From a virus (lineage: Duplodnaviria; Heunggongvirae; Uroviricota; Caudoviricetes): a stretch of 29,430 nt of DNA. Positions within the stretch are counted from its first letter, which is position 1; each line of letters opens with the position of its first letter. Location of the stretch: IMG/VR virus record IMGVR_UViG_2778261668_000002; one strand, given 5' to 3'. This document shows, one piece after another, positions 19,405-29,430 of this stretch. Both the position numbers and the translations under genes were made by a program. The notes under the pieces were generated by a model, which worked only from the letters and a program-made list of their open reading frames with translations, did no database searches and had not been told where the DNA came from.

Positions 19405-20732
19405 CAGTGAAATACTACGCCATTCTGACTAATCAGGGCGCAGCACGGCTGGCTAACGCGACGATGCTCGGCAGTAAGCTGAATCTGACGCAAATGGCCG
19501 TTGGTGATGCGAATGGTGTCTTGCCGACACCAGACCCGGCACAGACAAAACTGATTAACCAGAAACGCATCGCGCCGCTGAATCTTCTGAATGTTGACCC
19601 GAACAACCAGAGCCAGATTATTGCGGAGCAAATCATCCCTGAGAACGAGGGCGGATTCTGGATCCGTGAGATTGGGCTTTATGATGATGAAGGCGTACTC
19701 ATTGCGGTGGCGAACTGCCCGGAAACGTACAAACCGCAGTTGCAGGAAGGCAGCGGTCGTACCCAGACTATCCGCATGATTCTGGTTGTCACGAATACCG
19801 AAGCTATCACGCTGAAAATCGACCCGTCGGTGGTACTGGCGACCCGTAAATACGTGGATGATGAAGTCCTGGAATTAAGGCTGTATGTGGATGACCAGAT
19901 GAGGAACCATATTGCCGCACAGGATCCTCATACCCAGTATGCACAGAAACATAATCCGACATTTACCGGAGAACCAAAAGCGCCGACGCCTGCCGCAGGA
20001 AATAACACCACGCGGATTGCGACCACTGAGTTTGTTCAGGCCGCTATTACCGCTCTGATTAACGGTGCGCCAGCCACGCTGGACACACTGAAAGAAATTG
20101 CCGCAGCCATTAACAATGACCCGAAATTCAGCACCACCATTAACAATGCGCTGTCAGGTAAGCAGCCACTGGATGAGACGCTGACTCATTTGAGTGGAAA
20201 GGATGTTGCCGGTCTTCTCGCATACCTTGGTTTAGGGGAAGGCTCTGCTTTGCCGGTTGGCGTCCCCATTCCGTGGCCGTCAGCAACACCCCCAACGGGA
20301 TGGCTTAAGTGCAACGGAGCGGCGTTCACGGCCTCCCAGTACCCTAAGCTGGCTCAGGCCTATCCGGCGCTCAGACTGCCTGATCTACGCGGGGAGTTTA
20401 TCCGGGGATGGGATGATGGGCGTGGGGTTGATGCAGGAAGGGAATTACTGTCAAGCCAGGAGCATACCGTCATATCCCACAATCACGCGATTCCTACGAC
20501 GGTTAATACTCCAACTGCTATCCCTCCAGGTGTAGAGCAGGTGATAGCAAATGAAACTATTTTTTCTCCTGCAGCTCAATACGGATGTGACTATTGGGCT
20601 AATGGAGGCAGGACATTCACCTATATGTCTGGCGGCAAAAATGGTGCGGAGAACATCAATGATGCCTCATCAATGAAAGGTGAAACTCGTCCACGCAACG
20701 TCGTATTTAACTACATCGTGAGGGCTGCATAA
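19401..20732 (+). CDS. H: Tail fibre protein H: constant N-terminal part plus the currently expressed invertible C-terminal part
   Basis: 443 aa; N-terminus MTVKYYAILTNQGAARLANA typical of P2-like fibres; the C-terminal part contains RGEFIRGWDDGRGVD. The hix-like site at 20215-20240 lies inside the coding frame. Confidence 0.85.
   Translation: MTVKYYAILTNQGAARLANATMLGSKLNLTQMAVGDANGVLPTPDPAQTKLINQKRIAPLNLLNVDPNNQSQIIAEQIIPENEGGFWIREIGLYDDEGVLIAVANCPETYKPQLQEGSGRTQTIRMILVVTNTEAITLKIDPSVVLATRKYVDDEVLELRLYVDDQMRNHIAAQDPHTQYAQKHNPTFTGEPKAPTPAAGNNTTRIATTEFVQAAITALINGAPATLDTLKEIAAAINNDPKFSTTINNALSGKQPLDETLTHLSGKDVAGLLAYLGLGEGSALPVGVPIPWPSATPPTGWLKCNGAAFTASQYPKLAQAYPALRLPDLRGEFIRGWDDGRGVDAGRELLSSQEHTVISHNHAIPTTVNTPTAIPPGVEQVIANETIFSPAAQYGCDYWANGGRTFTYMSGGKNGAENINDASSMKGETRPRNVVFNYIVRAA
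20215..20240. repeat. hix-like 26-bp recombination site (left) inside gene H
   Basis: TTCTCGCATACCTTGGTTTAGGGGAA; 22 of 26 positions, including the central TTGGTTTAGG, match the reverse complement of the site at 22094-22119, and it resembles the hix/gix consensus as I remember it. Confidence 0.6.
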
Positions 20733-21334
20733 TGGTCAAAGCTGAATTAAATCAGGACATGATCGCCACGGTGGCCGGTGAAATCACCGTCTACAACTAC
20801 GATGGCGAGACGCGCGAATATCTTTCCACATCAACTGAATATCTTGCGGTTGGCGTCGGCATCCCGGCATGTTCTTGTTTAGATGCACCAGTTACACATA
20901 AAGCTGGTTATGCAATCTGCCGTTCTGCAGATTTTAACTCATGGGAATATGTGCCAGACCATCGCGGTGAAATTGTCTATAGCACCGAAACGGGAGATAC
21001 CAAAGAAATCACAACTCCGGGCGACTATCCCGAAAATACAACCACCCTCGCCCCGTTAACGCCATACGATGAATGGGATGGTGAGAAATGGGTGACAGAT
21101 ACTGAGGCACAGCATAGCGCCGCAGTAGGCGCGGCAGAAGCACAGCGTCAGTCACTGATTGATACTGCAATGGCTTCCATTAGTCTGATTCAACTGAAAT
21201 TGCAGGCCGGGCGGAAGCTGATGCAGACAGAAAACACCCGACTTAACGCTGTGCTGGATTACATTGACGCGGTGACGGCAACAGATACCAGCACCGCGCC
21301 GGACGTCATCTGGCCTGAACTGCCGGAGGCGTAG
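20732..21334 (+). CDS. G: Tail fibre assembly chaperone (gpG/Tfa family), inside the invertible segment
   Basis: 200-aa ORF with a TAATG overlap with H. Confidence 0.75.
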   Translation: MVKAELNQDMIATVAGEITVYNYDGETREYLSTSTEYLAVGVGIPACSCLDAPVTHKAGYAICRSADFNSWEYVPDHRGEIVYSTETGDTKEITTPGDYPENTTTLAPLTPYDEWDGEKWVTDTEAQHSAAVGAAEAQRQSLIDTAMASISLIQLKLQAGRKLMQTENTRLNAVLDYIDAVTATDTSTAPDVIWPELPEA

Positions 21335-21746
21335 GCCATTCAATATCTGGCGCACCGGAAGTATCGACCAGTTCCAGTGCGTCCAGATAATCCAGCCACA
21401 AATTATATTGCGCCAGTTCCTCACCTTTCAGGCGACCAATCGCCGCTTTACCAGGCCATTGCTTACTGTTTATGTATTCGTTGACCTGATCAATCAATTG
21501 CTGCTTTTCCAGTTCGGCTGCGGCAATTTGTTCCTCATGAGTTGGCGGTGGAATATCAATCCATGCAGGCATTCCGTCGATGACGCCTCTGTATTTTCCT
21601 TCTGGTGCTTCCTTCATAAATTCGGCGGCAACAGTGTCGTCAATTTCGATTCCATCATCGGGCCATTCGCCGGATTCCTGATAAGCGATTTTAAGCTCCA
21701 CAGGGAAAAACGCATTTTTATCGGCACTGAAAATATATTTCTGCAT
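21306..21746 (-). CDS. Alternative tail fibre assembly chaperone (Tfa), opposite orientation
   Basis: 146-aa minus-strand ORF; its C-terminus (LVDTSGAPDIEWPTPPA) is similar to the gpG C-terminus (ATDTSTAPDVIWPELPEA). Confidence 0.7.
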   Translation of the reverse strand: MQKYIFSADKNAFFPVELKIAYQESGEWPDDGIEIDDTVAAEFMKEAPEGKYRGVIDGMPAWIDIPPPTHEEQIAAAELEKQQLIDQVNEYINSKQWPGKAAIGRLKGEELAQYNLWLDYLDALELVDTSGAPDIEWPTPPAVQAR

Positions 21747-21748
21747 TT

Positions 21749-22147
21749 CTACCGTCCTATCGAAATATAACTGAATCTGTATTGCTGTGAGATATCACTG
21801 GTTGCCACACGCCACGCTGAATTACTGATATGTTCAAAATTTACAGACAAAACCTGCGGGGCAGGATTCGACGGGTCTGACTGAACGGCATCAGACATAA
21901 CACTGACTGAAACCATTGGCTGATTAGGGAATGGTATAGGGAAGTGTCCACTGATAAAGCGGGTCGTGTTTCCTGAAAAAGTGCCAAACTGAACAATATA
22001 TCCACCTGGTAGCCTGAACCATCCCGAACCAGAAGCGAATGCTCCCATATCCGGTATCTGATTATCTCCTGTGCCCACATCCCTTTTCGCCGCTTCTCCT
22101 AAACCAACGTTTATGAAAATGCAGAGATAACGGGCAACTGGCATCAT
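21749..22147 (-). CDS. Alternative tail fibre C-terminal segment, silent in this orientation; would fuse to the constant part of H after inversion
   Basis: Minus-strand reading frame running into the hix-like site at 22094-22119 and encoding ...VGLGEAAKRDVGTG..., which matches ...AYLGLGE at the hix site inside H. Confidence 0.65.
   Translation of the reverse strand: MMPVARYLCIFINVGLGEAAKRDVGTGDNQIPDMGAFASGSGWFRLPGGYIVQFGTFSGNTTRFISGHFPIPFPNQPMVSVSVMSDAVQSDPSNPAPQVLSVNFEHISNSAWRVATSDISQQYRFSYISIGR
22094..22119. repeat. hix-like 26-bp recombination site (right), about 55 bp upstream of the invertase gene
   Basis: TTCTCCTAAACCAACGTTTATGAAAA; inverted relative to the site at 20215-20240. Confidence 0.6.
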
Positions 22148-22174
22148 CTCCGGTTTTTATTCAGGGGGATGCTC

Positions 22175-22768
22175 ATGCTTATTGGCTATGTACGCGTGTC
22201 AACAAATGACCAGAACACGGAATTGCAGCGTAACGCGCTGGAGTGCGCGGGATGTGAGCGGATTTTTGAGGACAAAATCAGCGGCACGAAGTCCGACAGG
22301 CCGGGACTGAAAAAACTGCTCAGGACATTATCGGAGGGGGATACACTGGTAGTCTGGAAGCTGGACCGGCTGGGGCGTAGTATGCGGCATCTGGTCATTC
22401 TGGTTGAGGAGCTGCGCGAACGCGGCATTAATTTTCGCAGCCTGACGGATGCTATTGATACCAGCACGCCGATGGGGCGTTTTTTCTTTCATGTGATGGG
22501 TGCCCTGGCTGAAATGGAACGAGAACTCATTGTCGAGCGGACTCGGGCCGGGCTGGAAGCGGCCAGAGCCAAAGGTCGTATTGGTGGCAGACGACCGAAA
22601 CTCACCGCGAGTGAGTGGGAGCAGGCCGGGCGTTTGCTGGCTGCAGGGGAGTCACGTCAACGCGTGGCACTGATTTTTGATATTGGTCTGTCCACGCTCT
22701 ATAAAAAATTTCCCTCATCAGCGACAAAGAATAAATTGTGTCATCCCTTAGCCAACCGGGACAAATAG
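22175..22768 (+). CDS. Hin/Gin/Cin-family serine DNA invertase
   Basis: N-terminus MLIGYVRVSTNDQNTELQRNAL with the catalytic serine context and a C-terminal HTH (GLSTLYKKF); GGGGG ribosome-binding site 6 nt upstream of the ATG at 22175. Confidence 0.9.
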   Translation: MLIGYVRVSTNDQNTELQRNALECAGCERIFEDKISGTKSDRPGLKKLLRTLSEGDTLVVWKLDRLGRSMRHLVILVEELRERGINFRSLTDAIDTSTPMGRFFFHVMGALAEMERELIVERTRAGLEAARAKGRIGGRRPKLTASEWEQAGRLLAAGESRQRVALIFDIGLSTLYKKFPSSATKNKLCHPLANRDK

Positions 22769-22827: not shown

Positions 22828-24018
22828 ATGAGTGACTATCATCACGGCGTGCAGGTGCTGGAGATTAACGACGGCACCCGCGTCATTTCCACCGTATCCA
22901 CTGCCATTGTCGGCATGGTCTGCACGGCCAGCGATGCGGATGCGGAAACCTTCCCCCTCAATAAACCGGTGCTGATTACCAATGTGCAGAGTGCAATTGC
23001 AAAGGCCGGTAAAAAAGGCACGCTGGCGGCATCGTTGCAGGCCATCGCCGACCAGTCAAAACCGGTCACCGTTGTCGTACGTGTGGAAGACGGCACCGGC
23101 GACGACGAGGAAACGAAACTCGCGCAGACCGTTTCCAATATCATCGGCACCACCGACGAAAACGGTCAGTACACCGGACTGAAAGCCCTGCTGGCGGCGG
23201 AGTCGGTAACCGGTGTTAAACCGCGTATTCTCGGCGTGCCGGGACTGGACACCAAAGAGGTGGCTGTTGCACTGGCATCAGTCTGTCAGAAGCTGCGCGC
23301 TTTCGGGTATATCAGCGCATGGGGCTGTAAAACCATTTCCGAGGTGAAAGCCTACCGCCAGAATTTCAGCCAGCGTGAGCTGATGGTCATCTGGCCGGAT
23401 TTCCTCGCATGGGATACGGTCACGAGTACCACCGCCACCGCGTATGCCACCGCCCGTGCGCTGGGACTGCGTGCCAAAATCGACCAGGAGCAGGGCTGGC
23501 ATAAAACGCTGTCCAACGTCGGGGTGAACGGTGTTACCGGCATCAGCGCATCTGTATTCTGGGATTTGCAGGAGTCCGGCACCGATGCTGACCTGCTTAA
23601 CGAGTCAGGCGTCACAACACTGATTCGCCGCGACGGTTTCCGCTTCTGGGGTAACCGTACCTGCTCTGATGACCCGCTGTTCCTCTTTGAAAACTACACC
23701 CGCACCGCGCAGGTGCTGGCCGACACGATGGCTGAGGCGCACATGTGGGCGGTGGACAAGCCCATCACCGCAACGCTGATTCGCGACATCGTTGACGGCA
23801 TCAATGCCAAATTCCGTGAGCTGAAAACAAACGGCTATATCGTGGATGCGACCTGCTGGTTCAGCGAAGAATCCAACGATGCGGAAACCCTCAAGGCCGG
23901 AAAACTGTATATCGACTACGACTATACACCGGTGCCTCCTCTTGAAAACCTGACCCTGCGCCAGCGTATTACCGATAAATACCTGGTAAATCTGGTCACC
24001 TCGGTTAACAGCAATTAA
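22828..24018 (+). CDS. FI: Contractile tail sheath protein (P2 gpFI family)
   Basis: 396-aa ORF with GGAG ribosome-binding site; length matches P2 FI. Confidence 0.9.
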   Translation: MSDYHHGVQVLEINDGTRVISTVSTAIVGMVCTASDADAETFPLNKPVLITNVQSAIAKAGKKGTLAASLQAIADQSKPVTVVVRVEDGTGDDEETKLAQTVSNIIGTTDENGQYTGLKALLAAESVTGVKPRILGVPGLDTKEVAVALASVCQKLRAFGYISAWGCKTISEVKAYRQNFSQRELMVIWPDFLAWDTVTSTTATAYATARALGLRAKIDQEQGWHKTLSNVGVNGVTGISASVFWDLQESGTDADLLNESGVTTLIRRDGFRFWGNRTCSDDPLFLFENYTRTAQVLADTMAEAHMWAVDKPITATLIRDIVDGINAKFRELKTNGYIVDATCWFSEESNDAETLKAGKLYIDYDYTPVPPLENLTLRQRITDKYLVNLVTSVNSN

Positions 24019-24030
24019 GGAGCCTGACCG

Positions 24031-24549
24031 ATGGCAATGCCGCGCAAACTCAAGTTAATGAACGTCTTTCTGAACGGCTACAGCTATCAGGGCGTCGCGA
24101 AGTCCGTCACGCTACCAAAACTGACCCGTAAGCTCGAAAACTATCGCGGTGCGGGGATGAACGGCAGCGCACCGGTAGACCTCGGCCTTGATGACGATGC
24201 GCTGTCAATGGAGTGGTCGCTCGGTGGCTTCCCGGATTCGGTTATCTGGGAGCTTTACGCCGCAACCGGTGTGGATGCCGTACCGATTCGTTTTGCAGGC
24301 TCTTACCAGCGCGACGATACCGGCGAAACGGTGGCCGTCGAGGTGGTCATGCGTGGACGTCAGAAAGAAATCGACACCGGCGAGGGCAAACAGGGAGAAG
24401 ACACCGAGTCGAAAATCTCCGTGGTCTGCACCTATTTCCGGCTGACGATGGACGGTAAGGAGCTGGTCGAAATCGACACCATCAACATGATTGAGAAGGT
24501 GAACGGCGTCGACCGGCTGGAGCAACACCGCCGCAATATCGGCCTGTGA
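24031..24549 (+). CDS. FII: Tail tube protein (P2 gpFII family)
   Basis: 172-aa ORF with AAGGAG ribosome-binding site; length matches P2 FII. Confidence 0.9.
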   Translation: MAMPRKLKLMNVFLNGYSYQGVAKSVTLPKLTRKLENYRGAGMNGSAPVDLGLDDDALSMEWSLGGFPDSVIWELYAATGVDAVPIRFAGSYQRDDTGETVAVEVVMRGRQKEIDTGEGKQGEDTESKISVVCTYFRLTMDGKELVEIDTINMIEKVNGVDRLEQHRRNIGL

Positions 24550-24605
24550 TTTTCATCCGGTCAGCCTGGCTGACCGGTTAACCCCGATTCAGAAGTGAGA
24601 AAACC

Positions 24606-24881
24606 ATGAACAAAGAAAATGTGATTACCCTGGACAATCCGGTCAAGCGTGGTGAGCAGGTTATCGAACAGGTCACGCTGATGAAACCTAATGCCGGGAC
24701 GCTGCGCGGTGTCAGTCTGGCTGCGGTCGCGAACTCTGAAGTCGATGCACTGATTAAAGTGCTGCCGCGCATGACGGCACCGATGCTGACCGAGCAGGAG
24801 GTCGCCGCACTGGAACTGCCTGACCTTGTGGCGCTGGCCGGTAAGGTGGTCGGTTTTTTGTCGCCGAACTCGGTGCAGTGA
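24606..24881 (+). CDS. E: Tail assembly chaperone E (zero-frame product)
   Basis: 91-aa ORF between the tail tube and tape measure genes. Confidence 0.8.
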   Translation: MNKENVITLDNPVKRGEQVIEQVTLMKPNAGTLRGVSLAAVANSEVDALIKVLPRMTAPMLTEQEVAALELPDLVALAGKVVGFLSPNSVQ

Positions 24882-25033
24882 CGTTCCCGAAAAATCTCTC
24901 GGTCGATGACCTGATGGCGGATGTGGCAGTGATATTTCACTGGCCGCCATCAGAACTGTATCCCATGAGCCTGACCGAACTCATCACATGGCGCGAAAAG
25001 GCGCTCCGGCGAAGCGGAAACACGAATGAGTAA
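24606..25033 (+). CDS. Tail assembly chaperone E+E-prime, made by a programmed -1 ribosomal frameshift
   Basis: Slippery heptamer T-TTT-TTG at 24854-24860 inside E; the -1 frame is open from there to a TAA at 25031-25033, giving a 142-aa fusion ending ...LRRSGNTNE that overlaps the start of T. Confidence 0.7.
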
Positions 25034-29148: not shown

Positions 29149-29177
29149 TTGTTTTATAAGGATAAATTAACTAAAAT
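29149..29177 (+). promoter_or_regulatory. Candidate sigma-70 promoter of ogr
   Basis: TTGTTT (29149-29154), 17-bp spacer, TAAAAT (29172-29177), about 35 bp upstream of the ogr ATG. Confidence 0.4.
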
Positions 29178-29211
29178 GGCACTATCAACAAAACCGGAAG
29201 AGGTGCTCGCG

Positions 29212-29430
29212 ATGTTTCATTGTCCTTTATGCCAGCATGCCGCACATGCGCGTACAAGCCGCTATATCACTGACACGACAAAAGAGCGTTATCACCAGTG
29301 TCAGAACGTGAATTGCAGCGCCACGTTCATCACCTATGAGTCGGTACAGAGATACATCGTGAAGCCGGGAGAAGTCCACGCCGTAAGGCCGCACCCGTTG
29401 CCGTCAGGGCAGCAAATTATGTGGATGTGA
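29212..29430 (+). CDS. ogr: Late-gene transcriptional activator Ogr (zinc-finger protein)
   Basis: 72 aa from the ATG at 29212: MFHCPLCQHAAHARTSRYITDTTKERYHQCQNVNCSATF... with a CxxC-N22-CxxxxC zinc-binding pattern; the track extends it to a TTG at 29149. Confidence 0.9.
   Translation: MFHCPLCQHAAHARTSRYITDTTKERYHQCQNVNCSATFITYESVQRYIVKPGEVHAVRPHPLPSGQQIMWM

Follow-up and report, generated by a model that had tools for sequence, protein, structure and literature searches.

How is the second of two overlapping reading frames, lying between the tail tube and tape measure genes of a P2-like phage, brought to expression? The question is raised by a stretch of 29,430 nt from a virus of the class Caudoviricetes (IMG/VR record IMGVR_UViG_2778261668_000002), which was analysed whole and is called the window here. 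In it, gene E overlaps an open stretch in the -1 frame, E', and a sequence-only reading had proposed that a programmed -1 frameshift on the heptamer T_TTT_TTG joins the two into an E+E' tail assembly chaperone. Our analysis leaves very little doubt that a P2-like -1 ribosomal slip at 24854-24860 gives gpE and gpE+E'. What the window carries is the programmed -1 frameshift already described for P2 E/E+E', in a genome that all but duplicates P2. We set out below the anatomy of the site, the evidence that both frames are coding, the other routes by which E' might be expressed and the sequence elements that could tune the slip.

Site anatomy

The ORF list and Pfam matches give the gene order sheath FI, tube FII, E, E', tape measure T (Table 1). 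The heptamer lies on the plus strand, with 24854 as the third codon base of E, and both a direct reading of the sequence and a script place it in the zero frame of E, as had been claimed. The zero-frame reading at the slip site is GG[T TTT TTG], which is the X_XXY_YYZ phase that tandem -1 slippage requires. Upstream, the -1 frame is closed by a TAA at 24842-24844 and is open from 24845 by the script. Direct reading of the resulting two-frame overlap finds the heptamer to be the sole canonical X_XXY_YYZ sequence within its 37 nt.

The distance from the heptamer to the E stop had been put at 21 nt, a figure that holds if the TGA is counted; otherwise, 18 nt, or six sense codons, lie between the two. 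The 57 open codons claimed for the -1 frame downstream were recovered by script, from 24860 to the TAA at 25031-25033. This stop falls within T codons 2-3 (ATGAGTAA), 5 nt past the T ATG, and E' and T overlap by 8 nt. The proposed overlap with the T start thus stands as an overlap with gene T, but the ATG itself is not covered. The placement of the site just upstream of the tape measure gene was likewise borne out, the ORF at 25026 carrying the Pfam PhageMin_Tail domain.

Table 1. Coordinates of the features discussed, numbered from the first base of the window.
Feature	Position	Strand	Remarks
Gene FI, tail sheath protein	22828..24018	+	Pfam Phage_sheath_1, E=9.9e-34; also Phage_sheath_1C
Gene FII, tail tube protein	24031..24549	+	Upstream of E; Pfam Phage_tube, E=2.3e-60
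Gene E, zero-frame product, 91 aa	24606..24881	+	ORF list; ATG 24606, TGA 24879-24881; aligns to P2 E
Composite E+E' coding region	24606..25033	+	Predicted fusion of 142 aa; base 24860 read twice
SD-like sequence UAAGGUGGU	24842..24850	+	Spaced 3 nt from the heptamer; pairing with the 16S 3' end -8.4 kcal/mol
Two-frame overlap	24845..24881	+	37 nt, zero and -1 frames both open; only zone in which E and E' can be joined by a -1 shift
Slippery heptamer T_TTT_TTG	24854..24860	+	In phase; identical in P2 and pro483, both aligned with the window
E' segment	24860..25033	+	57 post-slip codons in the -1 frame, followed by TAA 25031-25033
10-bp perfect stem, CUGAUGGCGG/CCGCCAUCAG	24911..24954	+	Inside E', ~50 nt after the slip site
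Gene T, tail tape measure protein, 815 aa	25026..27473	+	ORF list; Pfam PhageMin_Tail, E=1.9e-45; P2 annotation

Relation to phage P2

Over its first 25 kb the window aligns with P2-like Peduoviruses at ~97%, the matches spanning 81-92% of their length. Around the site, 551 nt are 98-99% identical to 74 P2-like phage records, and 98.9% identical to the Peduovirus P2 records. Residues 1-85 of E share 98.8% identity with P2 E. Between the heptamer and T a single base differs from P2 (NC_001895), a C/T change at 24886 that exchanges the Phe codons TTC and TTT and is synonymous in the E' frame; with pro483 added to the alignment, no further difference appears in this interval.

What is on record for P2 matches the window closely. 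The RefSeq CDS for E+E' is a two-piece join whose note reads 'shares amino terminus with gpE; -1 frameshift; essential tail protein', and a misc_feature, 'site of -1 translational frameshift', marks the base directly after the heptamer. The P2 pair (P2p25/P2p26 of NC_001895, in the FETUD tail operon) agrees with the window in genes, heptamer, phase and 37-nt overlap, has products of the same 91 aa and 142 aa, and likewise ends E' within T. There is no difference in kind between canonical P2 and the window at this locus; elsewhere the two do differ, for instance in the DNA invertase and the invertible stretch of tail-fibre sequence that the window carries upstream of FI. The primary paper on the P2 E/E+E' frameshift is reportedly that of Christie, Temple, Bartlett and Goodwin (2002, J Bacteriol 184:6522).

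Two further papers relay that finding. In one, P2 is described as shifting by -1 at TTTTTTG to give a 91-aa E and a 142-aa E+E', with no hairpin after the heptamer (PMC3091744). The other describes P2 E' as having no ribosome-binding site and being made as E+E', as reaching 37 nt back into E, and as having a T6 run 20 nt upstream of a possible GUG (PMC3931495). The window agrees with the latter source on the 37-nt overlap and the T6 run 20 nt before the GUG, and appears to agree on the missing ribosome-binding site.

Coding evidence for both frames

Each part of the predicted fusion belongs to a recognized tail family. In the E part, aa 7-85 match Pfam PF10109, Phage_TAC_7 (47 bits, cutoff 25; E=2.6e-12), and there is a further match to PHROG 103, 'tail protein' (E=3.8e-43). 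The E' part matches Pfam PF06528, Phage_P2_GpE, at aa 104-139 of the fusion (E=1.2e-21; 76.3 bits against a cutoff of 23), as well as PHROGs 1756 and 6416, which are tail families; the Phage_P2_GpE domain can be reached only through the -1 frame. A comparison of E/E+E' with NCBIfam and with PDB sequences matched no model and no solved structure.

Substitutions tell the same story for E'. Compared with four relatives, differences in the E' frame fall by codon position as 6/4/14, 11/8/15, 15/11/33 and 21/13/32, and this third-position excess resembles that seen in E itself against the same relatives. Judged by this pattern of differences, the -1 frame is under coding constraint.

The reading of the site as a tail assembly chaperone frameshift gains support from the Phage_TAC_7 and Phage_P2_GpE matches, the near-identity to P2 and the RefSeq join. 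The word 'chaperone' for E/E+E' we infer from family naming and from the analogy with lambda G/GT; the P2 record itself describes the function of E+E' only as 'essential tail protein'.

Conservation across relatives

The arrangement is widespread. A tblastn search with the fusion found 418 phage records, 401 of which cover at least 80% of it in one place, and, among the matches listed, all that cover at least 79% of the fusion are joined from two pieces. We compared 18 loci from at least 13 genera, which include P2, 186 and phages of Yersinia, Klebsiella, Salmonella, Burkholderia, Ralstonia, Stenotrophomonas, Pseudomonas, Halomonas, Arsenophonus, Aeromonas, Vibrio, Acidovorax and Mannheimia. 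All 18 annotated loci have an E' homologue in the -1 frame and an in-phase X_XXY_YYZ heptamer in the overlap. The heptamer is TTTTTTG in 14 of the 18, and TTTTTTT, TTTTTTC, AAATTTT or GGGAAAG in the rest; among these variants are TTTTTTT (a T7 run) in Smp131, A_AAT_TTT in Xuanwuvirus P88 and G_GGA_AAG in Mannheimia PHL101. The Phe at the slip site is nearly invariant in a protein alignment of 17 fusion sequences.

Phage 186 (Eganvirus) offers a close parallel. Its gene H, annotated as orf51/orf52 and 'probably produced by a translational frameshift', has an in-phase TTTTTTG followed by six zero-frame codons before the stop, and a 57-aa -1 extension, and the stop of its E' homologue lies 5 nt inside the tape-measure gene G. 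It is ~73-75% identical to the window in amino-acid sequence and, unlike the window, has no GUG overlapping the stop of its E homologue.

The same -1 arrangement with an in-phase heptamer is found in 206 of 208 IMG/VR loci, a collection that comes from three single-protein scans and consists mostly of near-duplicates, from which 22 de-replicated contexts were kept. The two exceptions, L049 and L050, are of the Burkholderia type, and in them the run of G upstream is shortened from G6 to G5 (at about 930-940). This one-base deletion breaks the E frame, and reflects either an error in sequencing or a genuine inactivating mutation.

Alternative routes to E'

Could E' be made as a separate protein of 51 aa and about 5.7 kDa, starting at GUG 24878 by termination-reinitiation or independent initiation, with the heptamer incidental? 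A mechanically called ORF at 24878-25033 is present and its GUG shares bases with the E stop (GUGA). A gene of just this kind is annotated in several GenBank records, pro483 ORF39 ('putative tail protein') being one, and a short 'P2 GpE family' gene is annotated in many relatives. However, the GGUG ahead of this start ends just 2 nt before GUG 24878, a poor position for a Shine-Dalgarno (SD) sequence, and the overlapping GUG is not kept even in close relatives. There, the first start in the E' frame comes at codon 13 (Kp4886-2), 19 (186), 15 (YenM) or 41 (Arsenophonus), within an overall range of 7-41, and the Arsenophonus start falls inside the conserved domain. Enteric relatives keep the E' peptide directly from the slip site onward (VAELGAV, VAEFGGL, VTGFGGI, VAETGGV, VAEIGDG). 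The P2 literature also speaks against a separate start, in reporting E' as lacking a ribosome-binding site and as expressed in the form of E+E' (PMC3091744, PMC3931495). We consider a separate E' very improbable as the main route, with termination-reinitiation at GUG 24878 possibly yielding a small amount of free E' as a minor contributor.

Equally hard to credit is a stutter of RNA polymerase on the T6 run, by which an added U would leave some mRNAs carrying E+E' in one frame. The run is a homopolymer, T6 in most relatives and T7 in Smp131, and at 24833-24854 a weak hairpin is followed by a U run in the manner of a terminator, one of three such sites against 3.2 expected. We rejected this hairpin as a signal: its pairs are rich in G.U, such sites are no more numerous in the region than in shuffles, and a z of only -0.9 is obtained for the 37 nt upstream. 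Homologues, however, use the heteropolymeric sequences G_GGA_AAG (lambda's own) and A_AAT_TTT, which are classic ribosomal slip sites but offer polymerase no run to stutter on. Moreover, every locus retains the X_XXY_YYZ phase and almost all have G or A as the seventh base, and since phase and seventh base bear on tRNA re-pairing and not on polymerase slippage, their conservation counts against the latter. The run is also short, at only T6, whereas efficient transcriptional slippage in E. coli needs longer runs, of about 9. Polymerase slippage on T6 may nonetheless be a minor contributor.

The remaining possibility is that a T-rich heptamer happens to precede an untranslated open stretch in another frame. 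TTTTTTG is not over-represented, with 12 copies on both strands of the window against 7.6 +/- 2.4 in shuffles. Further in-phase heptamers with long -1 frames do occur: among 34 in-phase X_XXY_YYZ sites counted in mechanically called ORFs of at least 80 aa, four, the present site included, have a -1 frame that runs more than 30 codons beyond the zero-frame stop, and some of the other three lie in ORFs that overlap longer ones. Chance is nonetheless ruled out, with a likelihood we regard as negligible, because the Pfam match of the -1-frame product (E=1.2e-21), the third-position excess of substitutions in the E' frame and the conservation of the arrangement across hundreds of phages set the site far above it.

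Stimulatory elements

The proposed slip on T_TTT_TTG resembles those of E. coli dnaX and the IS911/IS3 family, where the bacterial ribosome likewise undergoes -1 tandem slippage on X_XXY_YYZ, with an SD-like element upstream. PMC5009743 describes signals of the dnaX/IS911 type as an SD 9-14 nt upstream together with a downstream hairpin or pseudoknot. The stem-loop or pseudoknot 5-9 nt downstream that is typical of dnaX/IS911 signals is missing from the window. The 50 nt after the heptamer (+1..+50) have a minimum free energy of -11.3 kcal/mol with z=0.0, no better than shuffles, and the same interval is unusual in none of 18 loci, the window and 17 relatives (z from -2.3 to +1.3). A search of the whole window against Rfam at the gathering threshold returned no frameshift element, and around the site only chance-level matches.

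Structure appears further downstream. The +1..+100 interval folds with z=-3.1, a value that comes from the stem at 24911-24954. This stem is kept in Kp4886-2 and 186, and in YenM with a U.G wobble, and distant relatives do not have it. We rejected it as a classical stimulator, since ~50 nt downstream is too far and since it is confined to close enteric relatives.

Upstream, the window carries an SD-like sequence, UAAGGUGGU, whose duplex with the anti-SD ranks in the top 1% among the window's 9-mers. Its spacing is at odds with a role in stimulating a -1 shift. By the spacing rule given in PMC5009743, an SD acts at 9-14 nt for -1 and at 3 nt for +1 shifts. The window has 3 nt, which is prfB-like, in place of the 9-14 nt of dnaX and IS911. 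We therefore discarded UAAGGUGGU as a -1 stimulator in the window, and at this spacing it is probably not one. Rather, it may be neutral, restrain the -1 slip or otherwise modulate it.

Across the family, the 22 nt that precede the heptamer are enriched for an SD-like 9-mer, with p <= 0.2 in 14 of 17 loci and in 20 of the 22 de-replicated IMG/VR contexts, values that are scored against positions of the same locus and are confounded by shared ancestry and by conserved amino acids. The dnaX-like spacing that is missing from the window is found in Burkholderia-type relatives, which have GGGGGG or GGGAGG 10-11 nt before TTTTTT[G/A]. In all 15 de-replicated contexts of this type the first of two Gly codons is GGG or GGA, although Gly is most often encoded by GGC in those loci; the adjacent Leu codon, by comparison, shows synonymous changes among the contexts.

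It is tempting to speculate that upstream SD-like sequences have been selected to tune the E/E+E' frameshift throughout the P2-like phages, a proposal that we think unlikely to be right as it stands. If it were true, SD tuning would help explain an efficiency two to three times that of lambda in the absence of a downstream structure. We know of no description of SD-like tuning of the P2 E/E+E' frameshift, and we offer the family-wide element as a lead, not a finding.

Proposed mechanism and comparison with lambda

We propose a model in which ribosomes translating E reach UUU-UUG within U_UUU_UUG and a minority slip one base back. In the slip, tRNA-Phe and tRNA-Leu would re-pair on UUU-UUU, and reading would resume at GUC 24860 for 57 codons in the -1 frame. 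Most ribosomes would not slip and would terminate at UGA 24879-24881 to release the 91-aa gpE. Those that slip would make the 142-aa gpE+E', whose first 85 residues would be common to gpE and whose remainder would supply the 'P2 GpE' C-terminal domain. Two junction peptides are predicted: VVGFLVAELGAVTFPK, should slippage be tandem with Leu decoded before the slip, and VVGFFVAELGAVTFPK, should it occur in the P site only, with an empty A site.

By position, between tube and tape measure genes, and by family, gpE/gpE+E' is the contractile-tail counterpart of lambda gpG/gpGT. The N-terminal part shared by the two proteins would coat the tape-measure protein T, the C-terminal part found only in the frameshift product would recruit the tube protein, and the frequency of slipping would fix the ratio of gpE to gpE+E'. 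This chaperone mechanism is predicted by analogy: PMC5009743 describes the model for lambda, and the biochemistry was worked out in lambda, not P2.

The parallels between the two systems are several. In PMC5009743, lambda gpG and gpGT are encoded by two overlapping ORFs between the major tail (tube) and tape-measure genes, and a -1 slip late in the first ORF joins the two. The same paper notes that lambda, too, slips without a strong downstream structure and that the slip frequency sets the ratio of products (PMC5009743). The lambda-type layout is found in the window, with overlapping ORFs in the interval from tube to tape measure joined by the predicted frameshift. There are also differences. 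Lambda slips on G_GGA_AAG whereas P2 slips on T_TTT_TTG, and the lambda tail is non-contractile. The lambda slip on G_GGA_AAG has a frequency of ~4%. We know of no sequence similarity between lambda G/T and P2-type E/E'. The lambda pair is said to have been the subject of studies by Levin, Hendrix and Casjens in 1993 and by Xu, Hendrix and Duda in 2004, 2013 and 2014.

For P2-type frameshifts, PMC5009743 gives an efficiency 2-3 fold that of lambda G-T. This value, the shift at the heptamer and the essentiality of both products are carried over to the window from secondary P2 literature and annotation. Combined with the lambda frequency, the value would predict roughly 8-12% of -1 reading at the window's site. 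On that footing, the E/E+E' shift would set the ratio of two essential tail-assembly proteins. It is textbook recoding, and its repeated finding adds nothing new.

The locus does bear on annotation. Many P2-like GenBank records list E' as a separate short gene, as a 'hypothetical protein' or under 'GpE family', or miss it altogether. The correct product is the 142-aa -1-shift fusion predicted here and not a small E' gene, and the gap in GenBank is systematic.

Neighbouring features

The start of T, ATG 25026, is preceded by a weak SD, the best duplex in 25006-25033 reaching -3.5 kcal/mol. In most relatives E' and T overlap by 1-8 nt. Because the SD of T is weak and the E' stop overlaps T, part of T translation might be coupled to ribosomes that have frameshifted.

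Between FII and E, at 24557-24577, lies a perfect 8-bp hairpin, CCGGTCAG-CCTGG-CTGACCGG, with a wobble pair in P2 and a loop change in pro483. At the equivalent place the annotation of phage 186 has a 'partial terminator of pJ transcript'. The hairpin may lower expression of E-T-U-D relative to sheath and tube.

Further upstream, two 27-nt hix/cix-like inverted repeats (20215-20241 and 22093-22119) enclose ~1.85 kb of tail-fibre and tail-fibre-assembly ORFs in both orientations, and a 199-aa DNA invertase ORF (22169-22768) adjoins them. The region 20215-22768 is an invertible host-range switch that is absent from canonical P2 and that the window has in common with pro483.

At the other end, the last ORF (29149-29430) encodes a full 72-aa late activator of the Ogr zinc-finger type (MFHCPLCQHAAHAR...). 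The presence of a full Ogr at this position implies that the attP/int region of a P2-like genome would come directly after the end of the window.
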